Source of the DNA: an uncultured Rikenellaceae bacterium
GTDB taxonomy: Bacteria > Bacteroidota > Bacteroidia > Bacteroidales > VadinHA17
Length of the DNA stretch: 64,000 nucleotides
Direction of reading: 5' to 3'
Assembly: GCA_964633195.1 (NCBI GenBank)
Contig: CAZWFL010000010.1
Location: 21,732-85,731, forward strand
Shown here: positions 35,688-63,812 of the stretch, piece after piece
Position numbering within the stretch: the stretch's first letter is position 1
How the letters are laid out: each line of letters starts with the position of its first letter
The notes under the pieces: generated by a model
What the model was told of the DNA's origin: nothing
The model's database searches: none
The model's input: only the letters and a program-made list of their open reading frames with translations
Position numbers and translations under genes: made by a program

Positions 35688-36272
35688 ATGAAGCCATTTC
35701 TTTTAGAGAATGAAGATCAGATAATAAGGAGTTTGTCGAAAGGAAATATTCTTGCCTTTAATACCCTGTTCAAGGCGTATAGTGGCCGGCTTTACCGATT
35801 TGCAAATGGTTATCTGAAGTCAGAAGCTGAAGCTGAGGAGCTTGTTCAGGAAGTATTCACGATTATCTGGGAAAAGAGGGCAGGACTTAAATCTGGATTA
35901 TCTTTTAAATCATATTTATTTACAATTGCCTTCAATATTATAAAAAAACATTTCAGAACAAAAGTCTATTTAAATGAATATTTGAAATCCGGACTTGATG
36001 CAGATTTAGATCTTCAAACAACTGAAAAGATCAATTACAATTCACTGGAGAAATACCTTAAGGAGCTTGTTGATAAGCTACCGCCGAGGCGCAGAGAGAT
36101 CTTTATTAAAAGCAGATTTGAAGGATTAAGCATAAAAGAAATATCTGAAGAACTCGAAATCAGTCATAAAACAGTCGAAAACCAGCTAACTGATGCGCTC
36201 AGGTTTATCAGGGCAAACCTTAACCGGGAAAATCTGTCAGCATTTCTGTTTTTTTCATTATTTGTGGTTTAA
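35688..36272 (+). CDS. ECF-type RNA polymerase sigma-70 factor
   Basis: 194 aa. Region 2 (LYRFANGYLKSEAEAEELVQEVF) and region 4 HTH (LSIKEISEELEISHKTVENQL). Followed by FecR and an STN-domain SusC. Confidence 0.9.
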   Translation: MKPFLLENEDQIIRSLSKGNILAFNTLFKAYSGRLYRFANGYLKSEAEAEELVQEVFTIIWEKRAGLKSGLSFKSYLFTIAFNIIKKHFRTKVYLNEYLKSGLDADLDLQTTEKINYNSLEKYLKELVDKLPPRRREIFIKSRFEGLSIKEISEELEISHKTVENQLTDALRFIRANLNRENLSAFLFFSLFVV

Positions 36273-36387
36273 AACCTTAGTAGCGGATAGGTGTATTTGT
36301 GAATTAACGGATATTACTCATAGTGTATTCAACTACACTGGTTTTATAACATATAAGAAATTATGTTAAGGTTAGTTGGTTAGGGTT

Positions 36388-36419
36388 AAAAGCAGTCCTT
36401 CATTTGGAGGACTGCTTTT
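36388..36419 (+). terminator. Perfect 12-bp hairpin between the sigma and anti-sigma genes
   Basis: aaaagcagtcct (36388-36399) pairs with aggactgctttt (36408-36419), 8-nt loop. The 3' arm ends in tttt and is followed by a T-rich tail (tatgtgttttt). Confidence 0.5.
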
Positions 36420-36463
36420 ATGTGTTTTTGGATGTTCGACAACAAATATAGTTTAAAAAAAGT

Positions 36464-37501
36464 ATGACAGAGGAAAGATCTGATATTGAAAAAGTTGAAA
36501 CCTATTACTCGGGAGATTATTCTGAAAAAGACCTGTCGATTATTGCTTCGTTATTTTGCGACAGTACTAGAGAAGAGGACCTGAAGCATATTCTCAGGGT
36601 TCAGTGGTATGAGCTGTTTAAGCAGGAGATTAAAGAAGAGAAAAATTTTGATCATGTTTTACACAGGATCCATTATGAAATAAATACGAGGGATGAAAAA
36701 AACAGAAAAAAGGATACGATATTAAGGATAGCCAGATGGTTTTCAAGAGTTGCGGCAATACTTATAATCCCCCTGGCTATCTATTCAGGAATTCAGTTTT
36801 TTGGAACTACCATAAAAGATGATCTGGCCTGGGTGGAGGTCAAAGCGCCGGCTTGGACACGTGCACAATTCAGTTTACCTGATGGTACAACAGGCTGGCT
36901 GAATAGTAATTCGAGCATAAGATATTCTGGGAATTTTAATAATAATCGTCAGTTATGGCTGAACGGAGAAGCCTTTTTTGATGTCATCAAAGATGTGAGG
37001 AAACCGTTTAAGGTCGAAACAGATGAGATAATTTTCACCGTTTTAGGCACCAGATTTAACATTGCTTCATATGATAATGAGAATGTTGTCGAAATAGTAC
37101 TTGAAGAGGGGGAAGTGGTTTGTTATAATAAGGAGCTGACAAAATCTTGTGCCCTTAAGCCAAATGATTATTTATCGTTTGATAAAAAACAAAAAATATT
37201 TAAGATTGAGACTGTCCAAGCAGAAAAATACTCTTCCTGGAAAGAAGGGAAACTTATTTTTCGTAACGATCCCATTGAGGTTATTGCCAGAAGACTGGAA
37301 AGATGGTATAATATAGAGGTTGAGGTCAGGGATAAATTAACTAATCATAACGGGCTCTGGGCTACTTTTATAGATGAAAACCTTGAAGAAGTTTTGAGAT
37401 TATTGCAACTTAGCTTACCTATTAAGTATAAGATTGAAAATCCTCAAATGCAACCAGATGGGGTTTATAGCAAAACAAAAGTAATCATAACCAGAACTTA
37501 A
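36464..37501 (+). CDS. FecR-family anti-sigma factor
   Basis: 345 aa. Cytoplasmic N-terminus, one TM (VAAILIIPLAIYSGIQFF), periplasmic FecR-like domain. Confidence 0.85.
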   Translation: MTEERSDIEKVETYYSGDYSEKDLSIIASLFCDSTREEDLKHILRVQWYELFKQEIKEEKNFDHVLHRIHYEINTRDEKNRKKDTILRIARWFSRVAAILIIPLAIYSGIQFFGTTIKDDLAWVEVKAPAWTRAQFSLPDGTTGWLNSNSSIRYSGNFNNNRQLWLNGEAFFDVIKDVRKPFKVETDEIIFTVLGTRFNIASYDNENVVEIVLEEGEVVCYNKELTKSCALKPNDYLSFDKKQKIFKIETVQAEKYSSWKEGKLIFRNDPIEVIARRLERWYNIEVEVRDKLTNHNGLWATFIDENLEEVLRLLQLSLPIKYKIENPQMQPDGVYSKTKVIITRT

Positions 37502-37699
37502 TTAACCTATTACTAACCTGAAAAACCTGTTGCCTATGTAATAAACAAATGAAAAAAAAGGGAAGCGATTGGAGCGCTTCCCTGGGAACAATGCTAAGTT
37601 ACTATCGTTTTATAATAACCTAACTTAAAACTTTGCGAATTTATGGAAAAAATTTATGATTTAAGGGTCATTTGCGACCCTATTCTAAAAAAACTAATC

Positions 37700-41137: not shown

Positions 41138-41154
41138 TAATATAAATTAAAAAT

Positions 41155-42888: not shown

Positions 42889-42944
42889 TTGAGATCTATA
42901 GTATAAATAGCGTGTTAGATTTTTTAATTAATAAAACATATAAG

Positions 42945-43867: not shown

Positions 43868-45181
43868 ATGAGAAAAATTTTGTTTTTATTATCATGTTTG
43901 CTTTTAATAATGAGCAACCCGCTGGTTATCAGTGGTCAGGAAACAAAGCCTCGCGTTATTGTAATGACAGATGGAGAAATTGATGATCGCAGTTCGATGG
44001 TTCGGTTTTTGCTTTACACGAATGATATTGAACTTCTTGCGATAATTCAAACAAGTTCAGTATACCAACGCCAGGGATGGAGCAAGGATAAATGGATTGA
44101 AGCACAAATTGACGCTTACGAGAAGGTTTACCCAAATTTAAAAATTCACGACCCTTCCTATCCGACTGCGGATTACTTAAGGAGCGTATTATATATTGGG
44201 GATGAAGTTGAGGAACATCTGGTTGTGGATCGGGCATCTAACAGGCGGTTCCCGGGGATGGACCCGGTAATTGATCCGGCAGGCTGGCCAGACACACCAG
44301 GGTCAGACAAGATCGTGGAGATTTTGTTGCAAGATGATCCCAGGCTAGTTTATATTCAGGCATGGGGAGGGGGTAATACGGCTGCGAGAGCATTTCATAA
44401 GTTGAAGACCCAATATCCGGCTGATTATGACAGAGCTGTATCGAAAGCCGTCATGTATCACATCTGGTATCAGGATGGGGCAGGAAATTATATTGAAAGA
44501 TACCATCCAAAAGTGACAATGGTGCTCAGTTACTTTTTTTCTGGAACATGGGATTACGGTAGTCAGAGATATACATTTCAGTTTGTTGAAGATTATGTAA
44601 AGAATAATCACGGGCCCCTTGGAGCTCTTTATCCACAGGATTACATAAGTGAGGGAGATTCACCGGCGTATCTGTATTCGATAGCCAATGGACTCAGGAG
44701 TCATGAGAATCCGACGTATGGAGGATGGGGAGGTCGTTTTTACAATGTCTATGGAAACGTATACAGGGATGTTTCGAAAGGGTCTTATCTTAAGTGGGTT
44801 GAATTTGCGAACAGGGATTTTGAGGCAAGAATGAAGTGGTGTGTTGCTAACAAGTATGAAGATGCTAATCACAGGCCGGTAGTAAAAGTAAAAGGAGAAT
44901 TGGACAGGACTGTACGATCAGGGGAGCCTGTGGAATTGTTCGCAGAGATCAATGATCCTGATGGACAACGCACTTCTCCTTTGTGGTGGCAGTTCAAAGA
45001 GGCCGGAACATACGATGGAATGGTAGAAACTTCTGATCCAAGGGCCAATAATATTAGTTTTGTTGCTCCGTATGTTGCCAGGCCGAGTACGATCCATATG
45101 ATTATAGAGGCTTCAGACCGGGGCAGTCCAAGCCTTACATCATTTAAAAGGGTAATAATTACGGTTATACCAGCATTTTAG
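43868..45181 (+). CDS. DUF1593 protein (nucleoside-hydrolase-like N-domain plus Ig-like C-domain), secreted; paralogue A
   Basis: 437 aa with a signal peptide. Motifs PRVIVMTDGEIDDRSS, AWGGGNT, EGDSPAYLY, GGWGGRF, RDFEARMKWC and DANHRPV are shared with four other ORFs in the locus. Confidence 0.8.
   Translation: MRKILFLLSCLLLIMSNPLVISGQETKPRVIVMTDGEIDDRSSMVRFLLYTNDIELLAIIQTSSVYQRQGWSKDKWIEAQIDAYEKVYPNLKIHDPSYPTADYLRSVLYIGDEVEEHLVVDRASNRRFPGMDPVIDPAGWPDTPGSDKIVEILLQDDPRLVYIQAWGGGNTAARAFHKLKTQYPADYDRAVSKAVMYHIWYQDGAGNYIERYHPKVTMVLSYFFSGTWDYGSQRYTFQFVEDYVKNNHGPLGALYPQDYISEGDSPAYLYSIANGLRSHENPTYGGWGGRFYNVYGNVYRDVSKGSYLKWVEFANRDFEARMKWCVANKYEDANHRPVVKVKGELDRTVRSGEPVELFAEINDPDGQRTSPLWWQFKEAGTYDGMVETSDPRANNISFVAPYVARPSTIHMIIEASDRGSPSLTSFKRVIITVIPAF
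44252..44829. repeat. 578-bp tract 100% identical to 57962-58539
   Basis: Line-by-line comparison at a fixed offset of 13710 nt. First mismatches are at 44251/57961 (c/t) and 44830/58540 (a/g). The flanks are clearly diverged. Confidence 0.95.
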
Positions 45182-45302: not shown

Positions 45303-46841
45303 ATGAACAAATTAATTTACAGCATAATTATTGTTGCCTTTTTCGTATCCTGTAATCAGAAAAATGCAAATATTGAACAGTGGGATGTCTTTGAGATCAC
45401 ACTAAACGGGCCATCTGAGGGAAATCCCTACATGGAGGTTGAGTTGTCAGCGGTTTTCACCGGTAGTGGTGAAAATATTACCGTCCCCGGGTTTTATGAC
45501 GGGAACGGGACCTACCGTATCAGGTTTTCCCCACCCGCTCAGGGTAACTGGAAATACCGGACTTCAGGCAATGTTCCTGAACTTATCGATAAAAAAGGGA
45601 AGTTCAGTTGTATAAAACCTTCCGGTAAAAACCATGGTCCCGTGAAGGTAGTCAATACTTATTACCTGGAATATGCCGACGGAGCGCCTTTCTATTCTGT
45701 CGGGACGACTGCCTATCAGTGGACAAGTGTAAAGCAGAGTATTCAGGATAAAACAATTGAAACCCTTTCTGAGGCTCCTTTCGACAAGATGAGGATGTGT
45801 GTTTTCCCAAAATGGTACAGATACGGGAACGATACTGAGCCATGGATCTACCCATATAAAAGAGAAGAGGGAAAGAATGATTTCACACAGCCCAATTATG
45901 AATTCTTTCAAAACTTCGACAGGAGGGTTAAACAACTTATGGAAATGGGAATTGAAGCCGATGTGATATTGTTCCATGAATATGACAACTGGGGTTATTT
46001 TGAGATGGGAAATGAGATGAATGAAAGATATGTGCGTTACATGATTGCCCGGATTTCTGCTTACAGGAACGTTTGGTGGTCGCTCGCAAATGAATGGGAT
46101 ATCCCAAGACTTAAAGTCGCAATAGACTGGGAGGGGATCGGAACGCTTCTCCATGATGAGGATCCTCATCAGCGTTTACGCGGGATACACAACTGGCATG
46201 GTTCAGAAGATCATTTCTATGATCATTCACGTCCATGGATCACCCATGTAAGTGCCCAGACTTCGCAGTTTTATAATGCAATCAAGTGGCGGGAGCAGTA
46301 CAATAAGCCTCTGCTCTTCGACGAGATGCGCTACGAAGGGGATGTCCCGAGCGGGTGGGGTAACCTGACCGCTCAGGAGATGACCAGTTATTTCTGGATG
46401 GCCGGGCTGAGCGGAGGCTATGGAACTCATGGCGATACCTTCAGTAACAACTCCGACGATTCTACGGAGGTACGCTGGTGGGGAAAAGGAGGGACTCTTC
46501 CCGGGAAGAGCCCTGAAAGGATCAGTTTCTTCAGGTCGGTTATGGAACAGGCTCCGGTTACAGAGATGAAGCCTGAGCTTATAGATAATGGCGATCCGGC
46601 AAACCTGAATAATAATATCCATGTTTTTTCAAAGGCGGGAGAGTATTACCTGGTCTATGTTGCAGATGCGGATATGAATATTGAGGTTAATCTTTCAGGT
46701 GATACTGATTATAATCTGGATATTATAGACACCTGGGACATGAAAATTGTCAGCCAGTCTACTGTTAAGCAAGGGGTATATAATTACTTAACGATATTAC
46801 CCTATACTGCATTAAGATTTCAAATCAACGGGGATGAGTAA
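45303..46841 (+). CDS. DUF5060/DUF4038-type glycoside hydrolase (GH140 apiosidase-like), lipoprotein; copy 1
   Basis: 512 aa. N-terminal beta-sandwich WDVFEITLNGPSEGNP...FYDGNGTYRIRF, then a TIM-barrel-like region with MRMCVFPKWY and WSLANEWD (clan GH-A acid/base-type NE). Confidence 0.65.
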   Translation: MNKLIYSIIIVAFFVSCNQKNANIEQWDVFEITLNGPSEGNPYMEVELSAVFTGSGENITVPGFYDGNGTYRIRFSPPAQGNWKYRTSGNVPELIDKKGKFSCIKPSGKNHGPVKVVNTYYLEYADGAPFYSVGTTAYQWTSVKQSIQDKTIETLSEAPFDKMRMCVFPKWYRYGNDTEPWIYPYKREEGKNDFTQPNYEFFQNFDRRVKQLMEMGIEADVILFHEYDNWGYFEMGNEMNERYVRYMIARISAYRNVWWSLANEWDIPRLKVAIDWEGIGTLLHDEDPHQRLRGIHNWHGSEDHFYDHSRPWITHVSAQTSQFYNAIKWREQYNKPLLFDEMRYEGDVPSGWGNLTAQEMTSYFWMAGLSGGYGTHGDTFSNNSDDSTEVRWWGKGGTLPGKSPERISFFRSVMEQAPVTEMKPELIDNGDPANLNNNIHVFSKAGEYYLVYVADADMNIEVNLSGDTDYNLDIIDTWDMKIVSQSTVKQGVYNYLTILPYTALRFQINGDE

Positions 46842-51251: not shown

Positions 51252-52664
51252 ATGAAAAAGAAACAAACATTTGGTGTGATTATTGCCACCAGGAATATCT
51301 TCAATTTTCAACTTGCTGTTGAAGCTAGAAAGAAGGTATTATCAAAGCTTGAGAGTATGGGTTTTGATGCAATAATTTTGCCGGAGAAAGAAACCCCTAC
51401 CGGAAATATTGAAGGATACTCCGATGCAGTTAAATGTGCTGAGCTTTTTAGGAATAATGCTAATCTAATTGAGGGTATAATAGTTATCTTACCAAATTTT
51501 GGTGACGAACTTGGTGTGGTAAATACTATCAGTCTGAGTGGGCTGAAGGTGCCGGTTCTGGTTCAGGCCTGCGATGATGACAATGATAAAGTTGATGTGA
51601 AAAGCAGGAGGGATGCTTTTTGCGGTAAGCTATCGGTGTGTAATAATTTATATCAATATGGAATAAAATTTACTGATACTAAATACCACACCTATTCTCT
51701 CGATAGCAGTGAGTTTACTATGGATTTGTTAAAATTTGCAGGTGTATGTCGTGTAGTAAAAGGTTTTAAAGGTTTGAGGGTTGGGGCAATTGGTACCCGT
51801 CCCGGTGGTTTTCAAACCATGCGTGCAAGTGAGAAACTGCTTCAGAAGTCTGGGATAACATTAGTGCCGGTTGATATGTCTGAGATAATAGCTGCTGCAA
51901 ATAAGATGAAGGACGATGAGCAGGTAGTAGTAGATAAAGTAAAAGCTATACAGGAATACGGTACTTGTGCTACGGTATCAAAGGAAAAGATTGCTCGTCA
52001 GGCACGCTTTGGAGTAGCGGTTGAAAATTGGATAGCTGATAATAATATTAACATTTCAGCACTTCAGTGCTGGGAATCGATTGAAAGAAATTACGGATGT
52101 GCTGCCTGTGTTACCATGAGCATGATGGGAGAAAAACTGATGCCCTCAGCCTGTGAGGTTGATATTGCAGGTTCTATTGCCATGTATGCATTAGCCCTCG
52201 CTGCCCAGACGCCTTCTGCATTACTGGACTGGAATAATAATTTTGGAGAAGATCGAGATAAAGTTGTATGTACACATTGCAGCAATTACCCAAAATCATT
52301 TTTCCAGAACGACATTGAGTTAGGCAGCCTTGATGTACTGGGAACTGTATTGGGGAGTGAGGACACATTTGGTGCAGTAAAGGGTAAAGTTTCCCCCGGT
52401 GACATGACCTATTTTAGAGTATCAACAGATGATCAGAAGGGATTTATACGTACTTATCTTGGTGAAGGTATCATTACTGATGACCCTTATGGTATGGACG
52501 GTGGAATTGCCGTTTGTCAGATACAAAATCTGCAAAAGCTTATGAAATTCATGTGTAAATACGGCTTTGAACATCATGTAGGAATGGTTCGGGGTCATGT
52601 AGCTGAAATTATTGAAGAAGCTATAGGCAATTATATTGGATGGGAACTTTATCGTCATGAATGA
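51252..52664 (+). CDS. L-fucose/L-arabinose-isomerase-family sugar isomerase
   Basis: 470 aa, cytoplasmic. RVGAIGTRPGGFQTMR, ACEVDIAGSIAMYAL and EHHVGMVRGH resemble fucose-isomerase-family proteins. Confidence 0.7.
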   Translation: MKKKQTFGVIIATRNIFNFQLAVEARKKVLSKLESMGFDAIILPEKETPTGNIEGYSDAVKCAELFRNNANLIEGIIVILPNFGDELGVVNTISLSGLKVPVLVQACDDDNDKVDVKSRRDAFCGKLSVCNNLYQYGIKFTDTKYHTYSLDSSEFTMDLLKFAGVCRVVKGFKGLRVGAIGTRPGGFQTMRASEKLLQKSGITLVPVDMSEIIAAANKMKDDEQVVVDKVKAIQEYGTCATVSKEKIARQARFGVAVENWIADNNINISALQCWESIERNYGCAACVTMSMMGEKLMPSACEVDIAGSIAMYALALAAQTPSALLDWNNNFGEDRDKVVCTHCSNYPKSFFQNDIELGSLDVLGTVLGSEDTFGAVKGKVSPGDMTYFRVSTDDQKGFIRTYLGEGIITDDPYGMDGGIAVCQIQNLQKLMKFMCKYGFEHHVGMVRGHVAEIIEEAIGNYIGWELYRHE

Positions 52665-52804: not shown

Positions 52805-54322
52805 ATGAAAAGAATAGTTTTGGCTGTATTATTACTGCAGAGCACGGTAATATTTTCCCAAAGCAGTATTGAAAAATGGAAAGTATTTGAAATAACGCTT
52901 AAAGGACCTTCTTCCGGGAATCCTTTTCAGGATGTGACCCTGACAGCAACCTTTTCTAACGGTGTGACAGAAACTGATATTACAGGGTTTTACGATGGGA
53001 ATGGTATATTCAAGATCAGGTTCATGCCAGCGGAAGAAGGGAAATGGAATTACATCACTAAAAGCAATCAGAAAGCGCTCAACAATAAAAAGGGGCAATT
53101 TACATGCATACCCCCTACTGGTAACAATCATGGTCCGGTGATTGTTAAAGATACTTTCAACTTTGCTTATGCTGATGGCACACCACATTATTCGTTTGGA
53201 ACCACAGCGTATGCGTGGATACATCAGGGTGACAGCCTGGCACAACTTACCCTCCAGACTTTATCAAAAGGGTATTTTAACAAGATGCGTATGTGTATCT
53301 TCCCAAAAGATTATAATTGGAACAAGAACGAACCTTTGCTTTATCCCTTCGAAGGACAACCAATCACAGACTGGGATTATTCCCGATTCAATCCTTCGTA
53401 TTTCCGAAATGTCGAAAAACGGATTTCACAGTTAGACTCGTTAGGAATTGAAGCTGACCTTATTGTTTTTCATCCATACGACCGATGGGGATTTGCAAAT
53501 ATGGACAGAGAAACCGACGAGAGATACATCAGGTATGTTGTTGCCAGATTTGCAGCTTTTAAAAATGTATGGTGGAGTATGGCTAATGAATACGATTTTA
53601 TGAAGAGTAAGAACTTGGACGACTGGGATAGATTTATTGACCTGTTTGCACAGATAGATCCTTACCATCGCTTACTTGGGATTCACAACGGAAGAGTCTG
53701 GTATGACCACACAAATCCTTTAATAACCCATGCAAGCATTCAAAACGAAGATACCTATAATGCAAGAGAATACCGGAATAAGTACAAAAAACCTGTCGTC
53801 TTCGACGAATGCCGTTACGAGGGAACTATTCCCAGTTCCTGGGGAAACATTACTGCTGAGGAGATGGTAAATAAATTTTGGTATGGATTCACTAATGGCG
53901 GACATGTCGGACATGGTGAAACCTATCTTACTGAGAATCCTTTGGTCTGGCCAGATAAATCATCTGACGTATTGTGGTGGTCGAAGGGAGGAATTTTAAG
54001 GGGAGAAAGTCACCCCAGGATTAAGTTCTTAAGGGAGATTGTTGAATCGGCGCCAGGTTATCTCGGCCTTACACCATATTTCAGGGGAACGCGGCGGTTT
54101 ACTGTTGTTAGCTATAAGGATGAATATTTTTTGGCATATTTCAGCCTCGATCAACCCAGAGCTACAATAATTACACTACCAAAGGGGAGAACCTATAAGG
54201 TCGATATTATTGATGCCTGGAATATGACCATACAGACCCTTAATGGCACATATAGTGGCAGGTGTATGATCGAATTGCCGGGGAAACCGTTTACAGCTTT
54301 GCGTATTATAAGCACTCCTTAA
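52805..54322 (+). CDS. DUF5060/DUF4038-type glycoside hydrolase (GH140 apiosidase-like), secreted; copy 2
   Basis: 505 aa. Collinear with 45303..46841 (WKVFEITLKGPSSGNP, FYDGNGIFKIRF, MRMCIFPKDY, WSMANEYD). Clearly diverged from copy 1 but alignable throughout, judged by eye. Confidence 0.65.
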   Translation: MKRIVLAVLLLQSTVIFSQSSIEKWKVFEITLKGPSSGNPFQDVTLTATFSNGVTETDITGFYDGNGIFKIRFMPAEEGKWNYITKSNQKALNNKKGQFTCIPPTGNNHGPVIVKDTFNFAYADGTPHYSFGTTAYAWIHQGDSLAQLTLQTLSKGYFNKMRMCIFPKDYNWNKNEPLLYPFEGQPITDWDYSRFNPSYFRNVEKRISQLDSLGIEADLIVFHPYDRWGFANMDRETDERYIRYVVARFAAFKNVWWSMANEYDFMKSKNLDDWDRFIDLFAQIDPYHRLLGIHNGRVWYDHTNPLITHASIQNEDTYNAREYRNKYKKPVVFDECRYEGTIPSSWGNITAEEMVNKFWYGFTNGGHVGHGETYLTENPLVWPDKSSDVLWWSKGGILRGESHPRIKFLREIVESAPGYLGLTPYFRGTRRFTVVSYKDEYFLAYFSLDQPRATIITLPKGRTYKVDIIDAWNMTIQTLNGTYSGRCMIELPGKPFTALRIISTP

Positions 54323-54462
54323 ATAGTTTTAAGCTGAATTAATTGAAAATATAAATTTTCATTCGAGGCCGAAAGAAAAATTAAGGAGTGCCTGGCCGAA
54401 CAGACCATAATTATTTAAAATACTGGTCGAGGGTTTGAGAGAATTATAAATTGGGATGGATT

Positions 54463-55920
54463 ATGAAAGATACTATATTAATATCTTGTTTTTCTCTGTT
54501 AATAAGCATCTTATTTATTAATTCCTGTAATTCAGTAAATACTGGAAAGCCACGCTTGGTTGTTTTAACTGACATCGGGGGTGATCCGGACGATATACAA
54601 TCTCTCCGGAGGTTATTGGTTTATGCAAATGAGTTTCGTATAGAAGGTTTGATTGCCACTGCAAAGAATACTCCCAGCCCTGGACGTACCTATGAGATCA
54701 GGACTGATATTATTTATCAGGCAATTGATGACTATGCAGAAATCCGCGATAACATTAATCAACATGCTCAGGTTTATCCTACTGCCGAATCACTGAGAGC
54801 TGTGGTTTTTGGTGGACAGGAAAACCGTGGTGTGGACAATCTTATTCCTGGTTTAGCAACACCTGGCTCACAGCATATTATTAAGAGAACCAATGCAAGT
54901 AAAGAACCTCTTTATATAGTTATATGGGGAGGCGCGCATGATCTTGCACAGGCATTACTGGATATGAGAAGCACCTACTCAACAAAAAAAGCAGAACAAT
55001 TTATCAGGAAATTGCGAGTGTATGCGATTGGCGACCAGGATGGATGGAATAATGTTTTTTCTATGGGGACAGGAGAGTGGATACGTAAAAATTTCCCTGA
55101 ATTGAGATATGTTGAAACCTCACCTCCCTGGATACATAATCAGACAGCAAGTTTTCGGGGAATGTATCAGAATGATTCCAGGGGGGGCGACCATCCTGGA
55201 TTGCCATTAGTAAGGCCTGGAATAGAGTTGATGAACGATCATACCTGGATACTTGAAAATGTATCGGCATGGGGGCCACTGGGAGAAGGCTATCCTCCCG
55301 AAGTAAACCAAAATCCGAATAGCGAAAGGAACACAAAAGGGGTTAAAGAAGGAGATACTCCATCGTGGTTTTTTGTACTTCCACATGGCCTGAATGATCC
55401 GGAAAACCCCGAATGGGGGGGATGGGGAGGAAGATTTGTACATCATACAGATGGATATTACACAGAAGCTGAAGATGATCACTGGTCAGGAGCAGATGAC
55501 GCCAGTCTTCGACGTAAATGGACAGTAGCCCGCTGGCGGGAAGCGTACCAGAATGATTTTGCTGCACGGATGCGCTGGTGTTTACTTTCCTATAAAGAAG
55601 CAAACCATAATCCTGTTGCTATTATTAATAACAATAGCAGAGACCCGATTCTGAAACTAAAGGTTAAACCCGGGGAAAACATAAAATTAGATGCCTCTGC
55701 AAGCTATGATCCTGACGGAGATAATATAACCTTTAACTGGTGGATCTATAACGAAATCTCTTCTGCCAAGGTTATCTTATCCAATAACACAGAACCAGTA
55801 TCAGATATAAGTGTTCCTGTATCCGCGACCAAAGGAGAAATTCATTTAATTCTGGAAGTGAAGGATGATGGAAAGCCTGAATTGTATTCGTACAGAAGGA
55901 TAATATTGCAAATAAAATAA
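54463..55920 (+). CDS. DUF1593 protein, lipoprotein; paralogue B (TDIGGDPDD class)
   Basis: ATG 54463 gives MKDTILISCFSLLISILFINSC. Motifs PRLVVLTDIGGDPDDIQS, IWGGAHD, EGDTPSWFF, GGWGGRF, NDFAARMRWC, EANHNPV, DPDGD. Confidence 0.8.
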   Translation: MKDTILISCFSLLISILFINSCNSVNTGKPRLVVLTDIGGDPDDIQSLRRLLVYANEFRIEGLIATAKNTPSPGRTYEIRTDIIYQAIDDYAEIRDNINQHAQVYPTAESLRAVVFGGQENRGVDNLIPGLATPGSQHIIKRTNASKEPLYIVIWGGAHDLAQALLDMRSTYSTKKAEQFIRKLRVYAIGDQDGWNNVFSMGTGEWIRKNFPELRYVETSPPWIHNQTASFRGMYQNDSRGGDHPGLPLVRPGIELMNDHTWILENVSAWGPLGEGYPPEVNQNPNSERNTKGVKEGDTPSWFFVLPHGLNDPENPEWGGWGGRFVHHTDGYYTEAEDDHWSGADDASLRRKWTVARWREAYQNDFAARMRWCLLSYKEANHNPVAIINNNSRDPILKLKVKPGENIKLDASASYDPDGDNITFNWWIYNEISSAKVILSNNTEPVSDISVPVSATKGEIHLILEVKDDGKPELYSYRRIILQIK

Positions 55921-57430: not shown

Positions 57431-57574
57431 ACTTTGTTATTAATGAAATATACAGAGCAGAGATTGGCCCAAAGTTCTAAGCTCATCAAATCAGCGAAGG
57501 GATGTAACTAAATTGAATATAACTAAGGAAATATGTTAAATAAAAATTCATATGAAATGAAGAAAATGTTAAAA

Positions 57575-58900
57575 ATGAGAAGATTATTATTAATGTTATC
57601 GGGTCTGCTTTTAATATTAATTAGCAACCCACTGGTTGCCCAGGGTCAGGAAACAAAACCCCGGGTTATTGTAATGACAGATGGAGAAGTTGATGATCGC
57701 AGTTCGATGGTTCGGTTTTTACTTTACACGAATGATATTGAACTTCTTGCGATCATTCAAACAAGTTCAGTATACCAGCGCCAGGGGTGGAGCAAGGATA
57801 AATGGATAGAAGCCCAGATTGATGCTTACGAAAAGGTACACCCAAATTTAATAATTCACGACCCTTCCTATCCTACTGCGGATTATTTACGGAGTGTATT
57901 ATATGTCGGGGATGAAGCTGAGGAACATCTGGTTGTGGATCGTGCATCGAACAGGCGGTTTCCGGGGATGGACCCGGTAATTGATCCGGCAGGCTGGCCA
58001 GACACACCAGGGTCAGACAAGATCGTGGAGATTTTGTTGCAAGATGATCCCAGGCTAGTTTATATTCAGGCATGGGGAGGGGGTAATACGGCTGCGAGAG
58101 CATTTCATAAGTTGAAGACCCAATATCCGGCTGATTATGACAGAGCTGTATCGAAAGCCGTCATGTATCACATCTGGTATCAGGATGGGGCAGGAAATTA
58201 TATTGAAAGATACCATCCAAAAGTGACAATGGTGCTCAGTTACTTTTTTTCTGGAACATGGGATTACGGTAGTCAGAGATATACATTTCAGTTTGTTGAA
58301 GATTATGTAAAGAATAATCACGGGCCCCTTGGAGCTCTTTATCCACAGGATTACATAAGTGAGGGAGATTCACCGGCGTATCTGTATTCGATAGCCAATG
58401 GACTCAGGAGTCATGAGAATCCGACGTATGGAGGATGGGGAGGTCGTTTTTACAATGTCTATGGAAACGTATACAGGGATGTTTCGAAAGGGTCTTATCT
58501 TAAGTGGGTTGAATTTGCGAACAGGGATTTTGAGGCAAGGATGAAGTGGTGTGTTGCTGATAAGTATGAAGATGCTAATCACAGACCGGTAATAAAAGTG
58601 AAGGGAGAACTGGATCGAACGGTAAAATCAGGTGAGAAAATTGTATTGGAGGCCGAAGCTATTAATCCGGATGGTGTAGGATTCCGTGAAATACTTTGGT
58701 GGCAGTACAAGGAGGCAGGAACATATAATGGAATGGTTGAGACAACTGATCCCAGAAACAATGCTATTAGTTTTGTCGCTCCCCATGTTACGACTCCACA
58801 AACTATTCATATGATTTTTGAGGCCACTTCCCTCGGAGTACCACGTTCGTTTCTTACTGGATTTACGAGGGTTATTATAACTGTGGTTCCGGCATTTTAA
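57575..58900 (+). CDS. DUF1593 protein, secreted; paralogue C (near-twin of A)
   Basis: The track start is 57533. ATG 57575 (MRRLLLMLSG...) aligns with the start of paralogue A. The central 578 bp are identical to A; the C-terminal Ig-like domain is diverged. Confidence 0.8.
   Translation: MRRLLLMLSGLLLILISNPLVAQGQETKPRVIVMTDGEVDDRSSMVRFLLYTNDIELLAIIQTSSVYQRQGWSKDKWIEAQIDAYEKVHPNLIIHDPSYPTADYLRSVLYVGDEAEEHLVVDRASNRRFPGMDPVIDPAGWPDTPGSDKIVEILLQDDPRLVYIQAWGGGNTAARAFHKLKTQYPADYDRAVSKAVMYHIWYQDGAGNYIERYHPKVTMVLSYFFSGTWDYGSQRYTFQFVEDYVKNNHGPLGALYPQDYISEGDSPAYLYSIANGLRSHENPTYGGWGGRFYNVYGNVYRDVSKGSYLKWVEFANRDFEARMKWCVADKYEDANHRPVIKVKGELDRTVKSGEKIVLEAEAINPDGVGFREILWWQYKEAGTYNGMVETTDPRNNAISFVAPHVTTPQTIHMIFEATSLGVPRSFLTGFTRVIITVVPAF
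57962..58539. repeat. 578-bp tract 100% identical to 44252-44829
   Basis: See 44252-44829. The identical antisense shadow ORFs in the track (44345..44611 = 58055..58321) confirm it independently. Confidence 0.95.
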
Positions 58901-59023
58901 ACTACTCAATTAAGGCTTTTTTTGACCCTTATTGTAGTTTTAAATGCTTTTCGACCGTTTTTGACAACCAGATCATTAGGTCAATTATATAAGATTGTTC
59001 CGTTTTATTATATAATAATAATT

Positions 59024-59938
59024 ATGGAGTTAATAAATAAAAGAATGGTTCATGCCATCTATATAGTAATCTTTCAGTTGCTTTTACCGACCAACACATT
59101 ATGCCAAAATGCAGATGATTTTAGCAAAATTGTAATAACCAAAGAACAACGGTTTGGTTACATGACGTGGAAAATCCAAGCAGCAAATGGAATTTGGCAT
59201 TACGAAATAGAAAAATTAGAAAATGTTGAGCCCGGTACTGGCTTTAGTTCGGCCATAGATCAATCCGGAAATGATTGGATAGGCAATGATTGTGTAGGCA
59301 GAAGAGAATGGCGAGGGTGGCCTAATTTTGGATCTGATGGTTTTGGACACCCTTGCCGCGGTGGCAGTGGCAAATCCAGATGGTTGGATTCAGATGGCAA
59401 TCAGATTGAATTTGAGGAAAAATATGTCGGAGAATATCTCATTCTGGAATCGTGGAATGAAAAATTCCGACTATGGTATCATTTTTTCCCGAGTCATATT
59501 GCTATTCAAATACTTGAAGCTCACGATCTTTATTCGTTCTTATGGGAAGGCCCCATAGCCGGAGAAATGAACCTCGATCAGCAATACTATGTGCTTGAGG
59601 ACGGGAAGAAACGAAGACTTCCATATAATACCGGTTTAGGTTATTTAGAACCAGAGTTTGGACGTAATTTCCCTTCATCTTTCTTTTATTTCCTTGATGA
59701 TAATGCGGAACAAATTGTATATATAGCTGTTAAGGATCAGAGTGAAGGTGGTGATGAGGGTTGGTGTCAACCAAATAACATGGTAATATTTAGTTTTGGC
59801 CGTGAAGATGATAAACGTGCACTGTCAGGAACTGATGCCATATGTGTTTTTGGTTTTCTAAACAAGAATATTGGACATGAAGAAATAAAGAGTTTTATTA
59901 TGGATCGCCTGGATAATCCATTTCAGAAAGGAAATTAA
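59024..59938 (+). CDS. Orphan secreted protein, no recognisable family
   Basis: The track ORF starts at TTG 58922. ATG 59024 gives MELINKRMVHAIYIVIFQLLLPTNTLCQ (signal-like). About 304 aa; no motif I can assign. Confidence 0.4.
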   Translation: MELINKRMVHAIYIVIFQLLLPTNTLCQNADDFSKIVITKEQRFGYMTWKIQAANGIWHYEIEKLENVEPGTGFSSAIDQSGNDWIGNDCVGRREWRGWPNFGSDGFGHPCRGGSGKSRWLDSDGNQIEFEEKYVGEYLILESWNEKFRLWYHFFPSHIAIQILEAHDLYSFLWEGPIAGEMNLDQQYYVLEDGKKRRLPYNTGLGYLEPEFGRNFPSSFFYFLDDNAEQIVYIAVKDQSEGGDEGWCQPNNMVIFSFGREDDKRALSGTDAICVFGFLNKNIGHEEIKSFIMDRLDNPFQKGN

Positions 59939-60056
59939 TTATGAAAATAACAGTCATCCATACTTAATCCTTATTTACTTAACATGTATGGCCATTATAT
60001 TATTATTAATCAATGAATGCTTCTTTCATGACTGCAAAACTTTTAAATAAAATGAT

Positions 60057-61559
60057 ATGAAAACACTGTGGGTTCTGATATTTTTTACACTACTTGGATG
60101 CAATCAAATGATTTCAACAAAGTCAGATGATGTTAAACCGCGCACTATAGTTACAACTGACGGTGAAGTTGATGATTTCAATTCGTTTATAAGGTTTCTA
60201 TTGTATTCGAATGAATTTGATATAGATGGACTTATTTACAGCAGTTCTCAATGGCACTATTCCGGAGATGGGAAGGGTACCCTCTTTACATCTGAAATGC
60301 CCGGCACTGCAAGACGCTATGGCGAGAGAACAGATCTGCGCTGGCCAGGAACAGATTGGATGGAGGAGTTTATCGGACTTTATGCTGAGGTACATGATAA
60401 TTTGCTTCTCCATGATCCTTCTTACCCGAGTCCTGAGCTATTAAATAGCCTTATCAGAATAGGTAATATAGAATTTGAAGGAGAGATGGAGAAAATCACA
60501 GAGGGGTCAGAATTTATTAAGGAGGTTTTGCTTGATGACAAACCTGGACCGGTATATGTTCAGATCTGGGGAGGGACAAATACGTTGGCACGGGCATTAA
60601 AATCAATAGAGGAGGAGTATAAGGATACCGGACAGTGGGACGAAATTTACAGGAAAGTTTCAAAGAAAACAGTAATATATACCATTCTGGATCAGGATGC
60701 TACATATAAGAGATACATTGAACCAAATTGGCCTGAAATTATGGTAATCTATAACTCTTCCCAATTTTGGAGCTTTGCTTACTCCTGGACAAGAGCTGTG
60801 CCAAAGGAATTACAGACTTATTTAGATGGAAACTGGCATGCCAAAAATATCAAATTTGACCGTGGACCTTTACTGGCAAGGTATTATGTATGGGGCGATG
60901 GTCAGCAGATTGAAGGAGATCCGGAGCACACTCAGGGAGATCCGGAGCTAGCTGAGAATCGCGGCAGGATGCAATATGATTTTATTTCAGAGGGAGATTC
61001 ACCATCGTTTTTTTATCTGCTTGACTGGGGATTAAGAAGTCAGGAGAATCCTTCATATGGTGGTATTGGGGGTCGGTTTGTGCCATCTGAAACAAATCCT
61101 TTTCGTCTGGAAGACGGACCCGGTGCAATGGATTTTAACCCATATACCGAAGAGATGGATAGGTCTTATCCTCAGGTTAGGTGGATTCCGTTCTTGCAGA
61201 ATGATTTTGCAGCCAGGGCTGGCTGGTGTGTCAGTAGTTACGAAGAAGCGAACCATGCTCCTGTTGTCACCCTTAAACATCCGGCTGATATAACTGCAAG
61301 CCCGGGAGTTAAAGTACAATTAAATGGTTCAGCAAGAGATCCGAATGGCAGGCAGTTATCTTACTCCTGGTGGCAGTATGTTGAAGCAGGAACATATAAG
61401 AATCCAATAATTATTAATTCTGCGGATAGTAAAAAAGCCTCTTTTACTGTTCCGAATGACGCCAAATTTGGTGAAACAATACATATTATATTTGAAGTTA
61501 CAAATAGTGGAACTCCACCTCTTACAAGGTTTCAACGTGTAATCTTAAAGGTCAAATAA
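60057..61559 (+). CDS. DUF1593 protein, lipoprotein; paralogue D (TDGEVDD class)
   Basis: 500 aa. Lipobox LLGC. PRTIVTTDGEVDDFNS, IWGGTNT, EGDSPSFFY, GGIGGRF, NDFAARAGWC, EANHAPV. Confidence 0.8.
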   Translation: MKTLWVLIFFTLLGCNQMISTKSDDVKPRTIVTTDGEVDDFNSFIRFLLYSNEFDIDGLIYSSSQWHYSGDGKGTLFTSEMPGTARRYGERTDLRWPGTDWMEEFIGLYAEVHDNLLLHDPSYPSPELLNSLIRIGNIEFEGEMEKITEGSEFIKEVLLDDKPGPVYVQIWGGTNTLARALKSIEEEYKDTGQWDEIYRKVSKKTVIYTILDQDATYKRYIEPNWPEIMVIYNSSQFWSFAYSWTRAVPKELQTYLDGNWHAKNIKFDRGPLLARYYVWGDGQQIEGDPEHTQGDPELAENRGRMQYDFISEGDSPSFFYLLDWGLRSQENPSYGGIGGRFVPSETNPFRLEDGPGAMDFNPYTEEMDRSYPQVRWIPFLQNDFAARAGWCVSSYEEANHAPVVTLKHPADITASPGVKVQLNGSARDPNGRQLSYSWWQYVEAGTYKNPIIINSADSKKASFTVPNDAKFGETIHIIFEVTNSGTPPLTRFQRVILKVK

Positions 61560-61624
61560 TAATCTGTATATATAAATTAACTCCGCTAAAAGTTATTCTG
61601 TTAACCTTAAAATTTAAATAAATC

Positions 61625-62278
61625 ATGAGAACTTTTTTAATAAGTATTTTGTTGATTTTTTCAGCGATAAGGTGTTGCGGACAAGAAATGAAATTTAAAT
61701 ATCATGAAATTGGCAGATTTGGCAAATTGATGGGGCAAACTGCATTAGTCGATGTAAACAACAATGGCTATCTCGACTGGGTTTTCGGGGTCAGAGGTGA
61801 AATGTATTTTTATCAGTATGTTTCGCCATCGGAATGGATATTGAGAGAGATCGGTAAAGGGGCAAAAACAGATGTTGGTGGTTGCCCGCTCGACGTGAAT
61901 AAAGATGGCTGGATTGATTTTATTGTCGGTGATTCCTGGTACGAAAATACGGGAGATCCGCAGAACAAAACTTTTGTTTTGCACACGAAGAACATGCTTG
62001 GTACCGCCCATGATGTAATAGCAGTTGATATCGACGGAGACGGTATCAAGGATATTGTCCAGATGTCAAATCACGCTGATCATCCGGTACTTGCCTGGTA
62101 CAGAATCCCGGAGAACTACCATGCCAACTGGGACTACCTGAAGATAAGCCCGGGCATACATGGTGGTATTGCACCGAGGGGTTACGGAGATCTTGATAAT
62201 GATGGTGATATTGATATTGTTACCAAACCCTGGAGCGGAGATCTTCATTTTTTTCTCGAAAACAAAGTATTTGAGTAA
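61625..62278 (+). CDS. FG-GAP/VCBS-like repeat protein, unusually short
   Basis: 217 aa with a signal peptide. Four Ca-binding-type repeats: DVNNNGYLDW, DVNKDGWIDF, DIDGDGIKDI, DLDNDGDIDIV. Confidence 0.6.
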   Translation: MRTFLISILLIFSAIRCCGQEMKFKYHEIGRFGKLMGQTALVDVNNNGYLDWVFGVRGEMYFYQYVSPSEWILREIGKGAKTDVGGCPLDVNKDGWIDFIVGDSWYENTGDPQNKTFVLHTKNMLGTAHDVIAVDIDGDGIKDIVQMSNHADHPVLAWYRIPENYHANWDYLKISPGIHGGIAPRGYGDLDNDGDIDIVTKPWSGDLHFFLENKVFE

Positions 62279-62366
62279 GTTACTATAACATCAAGTGAGA
62301 GGTAAAGTCTTAGGATTACCTGCTCTATTGAAATTTCTGATAATCAAGATTTTAACTTTATAACTA

Positions 62367-63812
62367 ATGCCTAATAAAATAATTATGAAAACAACTTTCT
62401 TCATTTACCTGTTTTCTTTGCTGTTCATTTCCTATCCCCTTTATGCGCAATCAGTTGAAAAACAAAGAGTGATTATTCTAACAGATATTGAAGCTGACCC
62501 TGACGATACCCAGTCTCTGATACGCCTTCTTTTGTATTCAAACCAGATTGACATAAAAGGGCTGGTTGCTACTACATCTACTCATCAGAAGAACTCCGTT
62601 TTTCCGCAATCCATAATAAACATTATTGAAGGATACCGAAAAGTGCAGCCGAATCTTGCATTACATGAATCAGGTTACCCGACAGCCGATGATTTATTAA
62701 AACTGGTAAAATCAGGACCCGCAGTGTATGGCATGAACGGTGTCGGTAAGGGACAGGATACGGAAGGTTCAGACTGGATCATTAAAGTGCTTGAAGAGGA
62801 TGATGACCGGCCTTTATGGATTTCTGTATGGGGAGGGGCAAACACCTTAGCCCAATCGCTCCATAGAATAAAAGCTACAAAGAGCAATAAAGATATTGCT
62901 GGATTAATCTCAAAATTAAGGGTATATACCATCTCAGATCAGGATGACAGCGGTATCTGGATCAGGAATAATTTCCCGGATCTTTTCTATATCGTAAGCC
63001 CGGGTAATTACGGCCGGTCTACCTGGATTGCTATTAATCAAGTTGTTGCGGGTATTGATAATGAAATGATTAGCAACAAATGGCTGGCAGATAACATACA
63101 ACAAGGACATGGCCCGTTGGGAGCTTTATATCCTGATGTTATGTGGGGAATGGAAGGAGATACGCCTGCCTTTTTATCATTGATCCCCAATGGATTAAAC
63201 CAACCAGAACGCCCCGATTGGGGCGGGTGGGGTGGCCGCTATGAACTTTACCAGCCAGAGTTTATAAACGACGGTGGTACAGGTGGAGTGAAAAAAGAAC
63301 CTGAAACCCGTCCGATATGGACGGACGCAACAGATAAATATGTCCCTTATGTATACAATCCTTATCGGAGGGCCTTGAAGTTAGCTGATAGTTTGTCGTT
63401 TCATGATAACAAAGTCACCCTATGGCGATGGAGGGAAGACTTCCAGAACGATTTCGCAGCCCGAATGGATTGGTGCGTTAAATCTTACGAAGAGGCAAAC
63501 CATCCACCTGTGCCGGCATTTTTACATGAAGATGAAATAGTGATAAAATCTGGCCAGTCTTTTGCACTTGATGCAAGTGGAACTTATGACCCAGATGGCG
63601 ATCATATTAGCTACTTGTGGTTTAGCTATCCGGAAGCAGGAAGCTACAAGGAATCTATCATCTCAGGTGTAATTAATTCATATAGGTATATAATTGTAGG
63701 TCCACAAGTTAAGAAACCAGAGACGGCGCATATAATTTTAAAGGTTACAGACAGGGGAACTCCACGATTATCCAGATATATAAGGCTTATTGTAAATATT
63801 GTACCGAAATAA
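62367..63812 (+). CDS. DUF1593 protein, secreted; paralogue E (TDIEADPDD class)
   Basis: 481 aa with a signal peptide. QRVIILTDIEADPDDTQS, VWGGANT, EGDTPAFLS, GGWGGRY, NDFAARMDWC, EANHPPV, DPDGD. Confidence 0.8.
   Translation: MPNKIIMKTTFFIYLFSLLFISYPLYAQSVEKQRVIILTDIEADPDDTQSLIRLLLYSNQIDIKGLVATTSTHQKNSVFPQSIINIIEGYRKVQPNLALHESGYPTADDLLKLVKSGPAVYGMNGVGKGQDTEGSDWIIKVLEEDDDRPLWISVWGGANTLAQSLHRIKATKSNKDIAGLISKLRVYTISDQDDSGIWIRNNFPDLFYIVSPGNYGRSTWIAINQVVAGIDNEMISNKWLADNIQQGHGPLGALYPDVMWGMEGDTPAFLSLIPNGLNQPERPDWGGWGGRYELYQPEFINDGGTGGVKKEPETRPIWTDATDKYVPYVYNPYRRALKLADSLSFHDNKVTLWRWREDFQNDFAARMDWCVKSYEEANHPPVPAFLHEDEIVIKSGQSFALDASGTYDPDGDHISYLWFSYPEAGSYKESIISGVINSYRYIIVGPQVKKPETAHIILKVTDRGTPRLSRYIRLIVNIVPK

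Follow-up and report, generated by a model that had tools for sequence, protein, structure and literature searches.

A sigma/anti-sigma-controlled polysaccharide utilisation locus probably directed at apiose-decorated plant glycans in an uncultured Rikenellaceae bacterium

The DNA analysed here (the window) is a stretch of 64,000 nt from an uncultured Rikenellaceae bacterium, and all coordinates are positions in it unless they are preceded by an L-number, which denotes a fetched genome or metagenome locus. Between positions 35688 and 63812 it carries a gene cluster that is probably a polysaccharide utilisation locus (PUL) for apiose-decorated plant glycans, controlled by an extracytoplasmic function (ECF) sigma factor and its anti-sigma factor. 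Its most likely substrate is an apiogalacturonan-type pectin of aquatic plants. A glycan of the apiose type had already been put forward in the original prediction, made from the sequence alone, and three lines of evidence now favour it: the cytoplasmic transketolase, kinase and isomerase are homologous to a D-apiose transketolase-pathway cluster with growth evidence in Escherichia coli, the family of the window isomerase fills the isomerase position of enterobacterial apt loci in mutual exclusion with other types, and the unassigned exported families co-localise with the same cassette across phyla and with pectin enzymes.

The strongest argument for placing the Fucose_iso_C protein at the apiose-to-apulose step is its distribution among apt loci. 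When 80 enterobacterial loci were fetched with AptA, full-length homologues of the window isomerase (42-44% identity) were found in 30 of them, including loci of Yersinia, Buttiauxella and Franconibacter. A pair of short-chain dehydrogenases/reductases (SDR) of the E. coli type was present in 33/80 and the 335-aa xylose-isomerase-like protein of Pectobacterium, presumably ApsI, in 12/80, and no locus (0/80) contained two of these three solutions. Such exclusivity is the pattern that would be expected for non-orthologous replacement at this step, and it makes the Fucose_iso_C protein a candidate D-apiose isomerase of a third, non-orthologous type. The family carries in public annotation only the name 'fucose isomerase', and a sequence search of the PDB gave no relatives. 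No homologue of the 335-aa protein was found by tblastn (E <= 1e-6) in the related Bacteroidota loci, nor does any open reading frame (ORF) of the window belong to that fold family. In the apt locus of Erwinia sp. JUb26, none of the three isomerase/SDR solutions was detected.

A known counterpart of the whole cytoplasmic block is the D-apiose transketolase pathway of Pectobacterium carotovorum and E. coli ST131/ST1193 (aplK, aptA, aptB and apsI plus an ATP-binding cassette (ABC) transporter; MetaCyc PWY-8089), with which it has in common a split transketolase, a GlpK-like FGGY kinase and an aldose-ketose isomerase. D-apiose supports the growth of E. coli ST131 and ST1193 strains with the aplK-aptA-aptB cluster when it is the only carbon source (PMC13001218), and the pathway of Carter et al. 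(2018), as summarised in that paper, runs from apiose via apulose to apulose-4-P and then to the transketolase. Taking the cluster of E. coli strain SE15 (ST131) as reference, both transketolase subunits of the window were aligned over nearly their full length with AptA and AptB (Table 1) and show the same overlapping two-gene layout. With E. coli AplK the window kinase shares 40% identity, and with the kinase adjoining aptB in Pectobacterium 38%; the latter two enzymes are 45% identical to each other and each about 39% to GlpK. AplK enzymes are, as judged from their sequences, themselves GlpK-like, the Pectobacterium kinase scoring 473 bits on the NCBIfam GlpK model; NCBIfam holds no apiose-specific models. 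The window kinase is thus a candidate either for phosphorylation of apulose before the transketolase or of dihydroxyacetone after it, with equal net chemistry. The window locus differs from the apt pathway in its isomerase (a 470-aa Fucose_iso_C protein instead of the 335-aa protein of Pectobacterium or the SDR pair of E. coli), in its putative uptake by a DMT permease, in a kinase nearer to GlpK and in the setting of the cassette, which lies within a SusC/SusD PUL under ECF-sigma control instead of under a sugar-binding repressor.

The cassette was then compared across genomes. With the window isomerase as query, 80 genome loci were obtained, 43 of them full-length, mostly from metagenome-assembled genomes (MAGs) of Prolixibacteraceae and other Bacteroidales and also from Maribellus, Gaoshiqia, Saccharicrinis, Mangrovibacterium and Mariniphaga, at 62-85% identity. 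The set FGGY kinase, isomerase, optional DMT permease and the two transketolase subunits was kept in 40-41 of the 43 full-length Bacteroidota loci, often with a DeoR regulator, and the DMT permease was a cassette member in 36/80 related loci. About 20 of the loci lacking this permease carry instead a transporter composed of a substrate-binding protein (SBP), a DUF2291 protein, an ATPase and a permease, with the same four-gene architecture as the apiose transporter of E. coli (33-35% identity for the SBP and 42-44% for the permease). Transporters of this ABC/DUF2291 type, whose DUF2291 member is a lipoprotein, were seen in L010, L197, L220, L223, L224, L233, L242, L244, L249 and others, and their carriers belong to the Bacteroidota, Verrucomicrobiota and Acidobacteriota; to our knowledge, an SBP-type ABC sugar transporter is unusual in Bacteroidota.

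The exported families of the cluster accompany this cassette. Within 10 kb of it, DUF1593 genes were found in 20/43 isomerase loci, GH140-fold genes in 12/43 and either of them in 25/43. A control set of 42 full-length loci, obtained by the same procedure with the nearby AraA and sharing its taxa only in part with the test set, had neither (0/42; Fisher p = 1e-7 for DUF1593). The association of DUF1593 with the cassette is beyond chance. Genes of the 4N0R type, to which both DUF5060 proteins of the window belong, often lie inside the cassette itself, for instance in the order TKN-TKC-GH140-like-FGGY-Iso, where TKN and TKC are the two transketolase subunits and Iso the isomerase. Of 80 loci collected with DUF1593-E, 11 contained transketolase plus kinase and/or ABC cassette genes, and in a twelfth the DMT permease was the sole cassette gene. 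Among the carriers are Verrucomicrobiota (Pelagicoccus and strain DG1235), the acidobacterium Terriglobus albidus, Larkinella, Runella and a Saprospiraceae MAG. This recurrence across phyla with differing gene orders favours a functional link over inherited synteny.

Individual genomes join the cassette to pectin genes. In Flavobacteriaceae bacterium MAR_2009_75, a DUF6298 gene, three DUF1593 genes, the isomerase, the transketolase and a DeoR regulator lie together, adjoining genes for GH28, a pectinesterase (CE8), a GDSL esterase, GH88 and uronate metabolism. A Draconibacterium genome combines four DUF1593 genes, DUF6298, a PL10 pectate lyase with carbohydrate-binding modules (CBMs), GH88, a BT1020-like propeller and the full cassette, and the N-terminal domain of its PL10 is related to the 304-aa lipoprotein family of the window. 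A second locus of MAR_2009_75 (L336; PHTZ01000001.1, 1651435-1672514) has homologues of the window SusD (43% identity), DUF3823-like lipoprotein (36%), FG-GAP protein (32%) and 304-aa lipoprotein (49%), together with two DUF5060 proteins. It is joined to an acid-sugar cassette consisting of a GFO/IDH/MocA dehydrogenase, a cyclase-family protein, a tartrate-dehydrogenase-like protein, a four-carbon acid-sugar kinase and an acid-sugar transporter of the major facilitator superfamily. This cassette may serve the same sugar by oxidation or else degrade an acidic branched sugar, and it seems to resemble the oxidative apiose routes reported by Carter et al.

These comparisons bear on an improbable alternative, in which the cassette would serve another sugar or polyol (glycerol or dihydroxyacetone, plus an isomerised pentose or tetrose passed to the transketolase), the DUF1593 proteins would act on arabino-, galacto- or ribofuranosides, and the likeness to apt would reflect family membership only. 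Identities of about 40% are insufficient to fix specificity, the kinase scores as GlpK, and the best NCBIfam match of the isomerase is a weak one to sulfoquinovose isomerase (112 vs. a cut-off of 700); moreover, most DUF1593-E orthologues adjoin arabinofuranosidases and esterases, and an arabinose cluster lies directly upstream. Nevertheless, the isomerase family excludes both the 335-aa protein and the SDR pair in apt loci, the sister loci share the SBP/DUF2291 architecture of the apiose transporter, GH140 and GH140-fold proteins occur in or beside the cassette across phyla, including Erwinia, and a GlpK-like kinase is what adjoins aptB in Pectobacterium itself. A sulfo-transketolase pathway was also considered and rejected, given the isomerase score, the presence of a kinase and the absence of sulfonate-handling genes.

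The upstream cluster (12831-35504) lies on the same strand and consists of genes for arabinose and arabinoside utilisation: an SSF transporter, AraA, an AraR of the NUDIX/NrtR type, AraD, a ribulokinase-like FGGY protein, GH51 and two GH127, together with DUF6057, a PD40 protein, GH31 and an aldose 1-epimerase. As GH51 and GH127 are among the commonest neighbours of DUF1593-E orthologues elsewhere, this adjacency may be functional.

Returning to an apiose glycan as the preferred substrate, the exported GH140-fold and DUF1593 proteins would be its putative degrading enzymes. Both GH140-fold proteins contain an Apiosidase-like domain (PF13204, formerly DUF4038) at 65-70 bits, a score that indicates kinship at the level of the superfamily, between DUF5060 and a C-terminal DUF5605. 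Their PDB match by phmmer is 4n0r (E = 8e-100 for protein 1 and E = 8e-122 for protein 2). The sequence traits of CAZy GH140, similarity to BT1012 and a Collagen_bind_2 domain, are lacking in both and present in a protein encoded beyond the window (L171:8420-9853), which has Apiosidase and Collagen_bind_2 domains and matches 8t9w at E = 4e-29 and BT1012 at E = 8.5e-27. Homologues of protein 2 lie within the cassette in many loci and adjoin aptA in Erwinia. In Erwinia sp. JUb26, the DUF5060/DUF4038/DUF5605 protein encoded just upstream of aptA (L133:7283-8737) is 42.5% identical to protein 2.

The DUF6298 protein, one of two that the original prediction had called orphans, has more than 3,000 relatives, many of them tagged DUF6298 (PF19815), and is 56-76% identical to many PF19815 carriers; a Pfam scan of the window protein itself gave no match despite the PF19815 hits precomputed for its relatives. 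The latter are found in Bacteroidota of the sea and of sediments, in Rhodothermales, in Balneola and in Marinimicrobium. According to its AlphaFold (AF2) model (pLDDT 91.7), the window protein consists of a (beta/alpha)8 barrel followed by a beta-sandwich at the C-terminus. The best Foldseek match was 8t9w (E = 4e-18, TM 0.66/0.70), followed by BT1012 (5msy, E = 3e-17); 4qfu, GH5 mannanases and 4n0r ranked after the GH140 structures. The predicted fold is therefore nearest to that of GH140 apiosidases. Searches of the PDB with the single sequence and with a profile found no relatives, and hhalign comparisons with the 4N0R family and with canonical GH140 were not significant (probability 5% and 34%, respectively), so the kinship with GH140 is one of predicted fold. 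In the profile alignment with the 4N0R family, the NE motif of the acid/base residue (NINNES) is aligned, and the FDExRYEG motif stands opposite PMNN(V/E)KVYG, suggesting that the canonical nucleophile may be missing. On a Balneola-type marine contig and in a Rhodothermales MAG (L167 and L168), a DUF6298 gene stands alone amid unrelated genes; therefore, this family is not always found in an apiose or pectin locus.

Among known enzymes, these proteins can be compared with the endo-apiosidase BT1012 of the Bacteroides thetaiotaomicron rhamnogalacturonan-II (RG-II) PUL (5msy/3kzs) and with a GH140 from a mangrove metagenome (8t9w). A canonical relative is encoded just past the window, these structures are the best fold matches of the DUF6298 model, and the Apiosidase-like domain is present in both DUF5060 proteins. 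In contrast to GH140, this domain is flanked in proteins 1 and 2 by DUF5060 and DUF5605 instead of Collagen_bind_2, and the structure that they match, 4n0r, is of unknown function. The RG-II PUL also contains dozens of other GH families that are absent from the window locus.

The five DUF1593 proteins of the window all matched PF07632 (DUF1593, currently named 'Sde182_NH-like') at 222-369 bits against a cut-off of 26.8, followed by PF21027 at 44-94 bits. DUF1593-A and DUF1593-C are 89% identical to each other, whereas the other pairs share 32-40%; the DNA repeats of A and C are spaced 13.71 kb apart and include one identical block of 90 nt, which points to a recent duplication or gene conversion. 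A metagenome contig of 13,729 bp (L003) is circularly permuted exactly across this repeat. Its interpretation as a mobile or tandemly amplified unit was set aside for the simpler one of assembly through the A/C repeat, so that its circularity is probably an artefact, with tandem amplification kept as the alternative.

For the single studied member of the family, Sde_0182 of Saccharophagus degradans, PMC8910321, citing Hehemann et al. (2011), describes for the DUF1593 domain (2yhg) a nucleoside-hydrolase-like fold with a preserved Ca2+ site, located after three CBMs; it reports no activity on nucleosides and proposes furanose binding, in line with a furanose-sized pocket. The C-terminal domain of Sde_0182 belongs to the same family as the window copies (E = 1e-81 to 1e-104) and shares with them its motifs and a C-terminal Ig-like domain; it differs in the three N-terminal CBMs, whereas the window copies stand alone, carry leaders and belong to a set of at least eight in one PUL. 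The motifs TD..(E/D)xDD, WGG, QD, EGD(T/S)P, GGWGGRF and NDFxAR are invariant in 2yhg and in all five window copies. A profile built from these copies matched only 2yhg in the PDB and no nucleoside-hydrolase structure, and no Pfam nucleoside-hydrolase model was matched by the window proteins; going by the literature, what the family has in common with nucleoside hydrolases is limited to fold and Ca2+ site.

In nucleoside hydrolases, Ca2+ chelates the 2',3'-cis-diol of ribose and an Asp activates water, and a cis-2,3-diol is also present in apiofuranose. By this analogy, it is possible, though less likely than not, that DUF1593 is a new GH family with a nucleoside-hydrolase fold, whose members would be Ca2+-dependent exo-beta-D-apiofuranosidases or broader furanosidases. 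That they would instead be non-catalytic furanose binders of the periplasm or surface, leaving hydrolysis to the GH140-fold proteins, is very unlikely. The source for this is Sde_0182 itself, inactive in the assays tried and read as a furanose-interacting module (PMC8910321). However, those assays were done with nucleosides only, and a domain placed after three CBMs, as that text describes, is in the usual layout of an enzyme. Furthermore, the Ca2+/Asp cluster and the acidic motifs QD and EGD are invariant among paralogues at 32-40% identity, and at least eight paralogues with signal peptides per PUL are typical of exo-glycosidases and not of binding proteins. A cluster for scavenging ribose or nucleosides was rejected, with no ribokinase present and Sde_0182 reported inactive on nucleosides.

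The other 'orphan' is a 304-aa lipoprotein (its ORF opens mechanically at 58922, giving 338 aa, and the actual start is 59024) from a family of about 90 members without a Pfam model. Its AlphaFold model (pLDDT 92.2) is a galactose-mutarotase-like beta-supersandwich. As the Foldseek matches (mutarotases, the YgjK N-domain and a PL4 lyase) reached a TM of only about 0.45-0.5, the assignment is confined to fold class. Its homologues are encoded beside GH140 and PL10 or occur as fusions with PL10 or Sde0182_C. In Paraglaciecola hydrolytica, the gene adjoins canonical GH140, PL10, an esterase and a TonB-dependent receptor. In a 912-aa, CBM-bearing PL10 pectate lyase (L169:5888-8626), the family makes up the N-terminal domain, and in proteins P0167 and P0176 it is joined to PF21027, the domain with which DUF1593 proteins typically end.

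As shown in Table 1, the cluster has the anatomy of a SusC/SusD PUL, with adjacent susC-like and susD-like genes, co-oriented exported proteins and a dedicated ECF sigma/FecR regulator, and every protein outside the cytoplasmic block has a signal or lipoprotein leader. The ORF listing gave 20 genes, all on the + strand and spaced by no more than about 250 bp, with no competing long ORFs on the minus strand; the single strand and short gaps of the original prediction are thus borne out, whereas its count of 21 genes was a miscount, since its own enumeration names 20. Its family calls were right or nearly right when scanned against Pfam. The five DUF1593 assignments and the absence of large classical GH families from the cluster hold as given, and the two GH140-like proteins do carry DUF5060, PF13204 and DUF5605, as proteins of the 4N0R type and without a direct sequence match to BT1012. 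The STN-SusC call stands for SusC (CarboxypepD_reg and Plug), which has an N-terminal extension ahead of CarboxypepD_reg, but the STN match (residues 72-118, E = 0.0012) reached only 19 bits, below the cut-off of 28.4. Similarly, the DUF3823-like protein is a lipoprotein with a weak DUF3823 match (20 bits vs. a cut-off of 27, E about 8e-4); its probable start is the ATG at 42945, giving the lipobox LVLGC followed by EDLE, and its homologue at the same position in L336 is itself tagged 'DUF3823 (weak)'. It is a candidate surface glycan-binding protein.

Table 1. Genes of the locus within the window, with the basis of each assignment.
Feature	Position	Strand	Basis
ECF sigma factor, 194 aa	35688..36272	+	Pfam Sigma70_r2, r4_2, ECF
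FecR-type anti-sigma factor, 345 aa	36464..37501	+	Pfam FecR, FecR_C
SusC-like TonB-dependent transporter, 1164 aa	37643..41137	+	Pfam CarboxypepD_reg, Plug
SusD-like lipoprotein, 577 aa	41155..42888	+	SusD_RagB (152 bits), SusD-like_3
DUF3823-like/fn3 lipoprotein, 244 aa	42885..43619	+	weak DUF3823 and fn3 matches, below cut-off
DUF1593-A, signal peptide	43868..45181	+	PF07632 + PF21027, 224 bits
GH140-fold protein 1, lipoprotein	45303..46841	+	DUF5060 + Apiosidase-like + DUF5605; lipobox FVSC
DMT/RhaT-GlcU-type sugar permease, 338 aa	46873..47889	+	Pfam, NCBIfam
Transketolase N-terminal subunit, AptA-like	47940..48806	+	43% identity to E. coli SE15 AptA
Transketolase C-terminal subunit, AptB-like	48799..49731	+	37% identity to E. 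coli SE15 AptB
FGGY kinase, GlpK clade	49741..51222	+	NCBIfam GlpK, 685 bits, above cut-off
Fucose_iso_C-family isomerase	51252..52664	+	Pfam
GH140-fold protein 2, signal peptide	52805..54322	+	DUF5060 + Apiosidase-like + DUF5605
DUF1593-B, lipoprotein	54451..55920	+	255 bits; lipobox INSC
DUF6298-family protein, 468 aa	56024..57430	+	PF19815 tags of relatives; AF2 + Foldseek
DUF1593-C, recent duplicate of A	57533..58900	+	222 bits
304-aa lipoprotein, unnamed family	59024..59938	+	family search, AF2, Foldseek
DUF1593-D, lipoprotein	60057..61559	+	236 bits; lipobox LLGC
FG-GAP repeat protein, 217 aa, exported	61625..62278	+	FG-GAP_3, 47.6 bits
DUF1593-E, most canonical copy	62367..63812	+	369 bits; PDB 2yhg E = 1.5e-81
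DUF4432 gene start	63910..64000	+	locus runs out of window

A strong hairpin lies 3' of the ECF sigma gene (36387-36420); apart from it, promoter and terminator scans stayed at chance level, with no convincing terminators on the + strand, and Rfam and tRNA scans found no RNA genes. The G+C content, about 0.46 upstream, is lower throughout the locus (0.35-0.43), falling from about 0.45-0.49 at its start (about 34000-36000). Near this boundary a DUF559 (endonuclease-like) gene is found on the minus strand (33745-34140). Together, the G+C drop and this gene may indicate horizontal acquisition of the locus.

The original prediction had also described the cluster as a complete unit. The PUL anatomy holds, but the locus extends further: metagenome contigs run about 9 kb past the end of the window, giving a whole of about 37 kb with at least eight DUF1593 paralogues and four GH140-fold proteins. 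Contigs L171-L174 have the same gene order, and L171, the one aligned, is 100% identical over 62300-64000. Beyond the window (L171:5512-14328, equivalent to about 63910-72730) follow DUF4432, DUF1593-F, the canonical GH140, a divergent AraC gene on the minus strand, DUF1593-G, two DUF1593 fragments, likely a pseudogene, and DUF1593-H.

From the gene content, homologies, predicted folds and cross-genome associations shown above we infer the following model of activities, localisations and substrate. Surface lipoproteins (SusD, the DUF3823-like protein, the 304-aa mutarotase-fold protein, GH140-fold protein 1 and DUF1593-B and D) would bind and cut the glycan, and SusC would import apio-oligosaccharides or apiosylated fragments while transmitting a signal to FecR and the sigma factor. 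Periplasmic cleavage of apiosyl linkages would fall to the GH140-fold proteins (two of the 4N0R type, the DUF6298 protein and the downstream canonical GH140), and the DUF1593 proteins, five in the window and at least eight in the locus, would act as exo-beta-D-apiofuranosidases of differing linkage specificity. Free apiose could then enter the cytoplasm via the DMT permease and be converted into apulose by the Fucose_iso_C isomerase. The GlpK-like kinase and the AptAB-like split transketolase would finally turn apulose and glyceraldehyde-3-P into xylulose-5-P and dihydroxyacetone phosphate; the kinase step would come either before the transketolase, with apulose as substrate, or after it, with dihydroxyacetone.

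Several observations weigh against this reading. The window kinase is nearer to E. coli GlpK (49% identity) than to AplK and passes the NCBIfam GlpK cut-offs. In phmmer searches of the PDB, BT1012 and 8t9w were matched by neither GH140-fold protein (E <= 0.01 for protein 1 and E <= 10 for protein 2), and the second catalytic Glu motif of the 4N0R family is not obviously kept in DUF6298. About 85% of the DUF1593-E orthologue loci lack the cassette and have esterases, GH3, GH127, GH51, PL10, SASA and GH43 as neighbours, which shows a plant-wall context, yet also a family that is not confined to apiose loci. At least eight DUF1593 paralogues exceed the apparent need of the known simple apiose and apiobiose side chains, and the literature searched contained no functional study of DUF1593, DUF6298 or 4N0R-type proteins. 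Finally, no pectate lyase, GH28 or uronate genes are present in the locus, which could not use a galacturonan backbone alone. As backbone and uronate genes are missing, the locus seems to harvest side chains and to leave the galacturonan to other loci; zosterin, for example, is a galacturonan substituted with beta-D-apiofuranose or short chains thereof (PMC11229556).

The number of paralogues, suggestive of many different linkages, also raises the question of whether the same apiose PUL would be directed at RG-II-type side chains or at small apiosides, such as flavonoid or phenolic ones. GH140 was defined on RG-II through BT1012 (PMC13501991), a BT1020-like propeller and GH95 are found in some sister loci, and GH127 is encoded both upstream in the window and near DUF1593-E orthologues, one GH127, BT1003, being an RG-II aceric-acid hydrolase (PMC13501991). 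Nonetheless, such a substrate is unlikely, given that the window locus is devoid of GH78, GH95, GH106, GH137-139, GH141-143 and PL1, and of the beta-glucosidase (GH1 or GH3) needed for apiosyl-glucosides, and that the carriers are mainly from aquatic sediments and the sea, the home of plants rich in apiogalacturonan (PMC11229556, PMC7644952).

No description of an apiose PUL was found in the literature searched, which yielded just a backbone lyase active on apiogalacturonan and no dedicated bacterial system for harvesting apiose. The pectin locus of Pseudoalteromonas fuliginea PS47, with a PL1 active on apiogalacturonan (Hobbs et al., 2019, as cited in PMC11229556), is likewise aquatic and linked to apiose-substituted galacturonan. 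Compared by description, it encodes backbone lyases and uronate assimilation, whereas in the window locus their place is taken by a putative apiose-catabolic cassette accompanied by DUF1593 and GH140-fold proteins. The PUL paradigm, GH140 and a transketolase pathway for apiose were already known; what is new is their combination in one locus, together with a candidate third type of apiose isomerase and the putative assignment of four uncharacterised families to the breakdown of apiose glycans.

Apiose-rich pectins (apiogalacturonan/zosterin and lemnan) are major wall polymers of seagrasses and duckweeds. Through this locus and its relatives, four families (DUF1593, DUF6298, the DUF5060/DUF4038/DUF5605 proteins of the 4N0R type and a beta-sandwich family without a name) become linked to a sugar whose catabolic route is defined, which turns domains of unknown function into directly testable enzyme candidates. 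If the proposal is true, these families would include new CAZy families, possibly the first on the nucleoside-hydrolase fold, and a new D-apiose isomerase with the fucose-isomerase fold, and their enzymes would serve to produce and analyse apiose-containing glycans, RG-II fragments included. Bacteroidota of sediments and the sea, along with Verrucomicrobiota and Acidobacteriota, would then possess a widely distributed, previously undescribed 'apiose PUL' with which apiose is stripped from the pectin of seagrass, duckweed and pondweed, and this would help to explain the turnover of aquatic-plant carbon in sediments.

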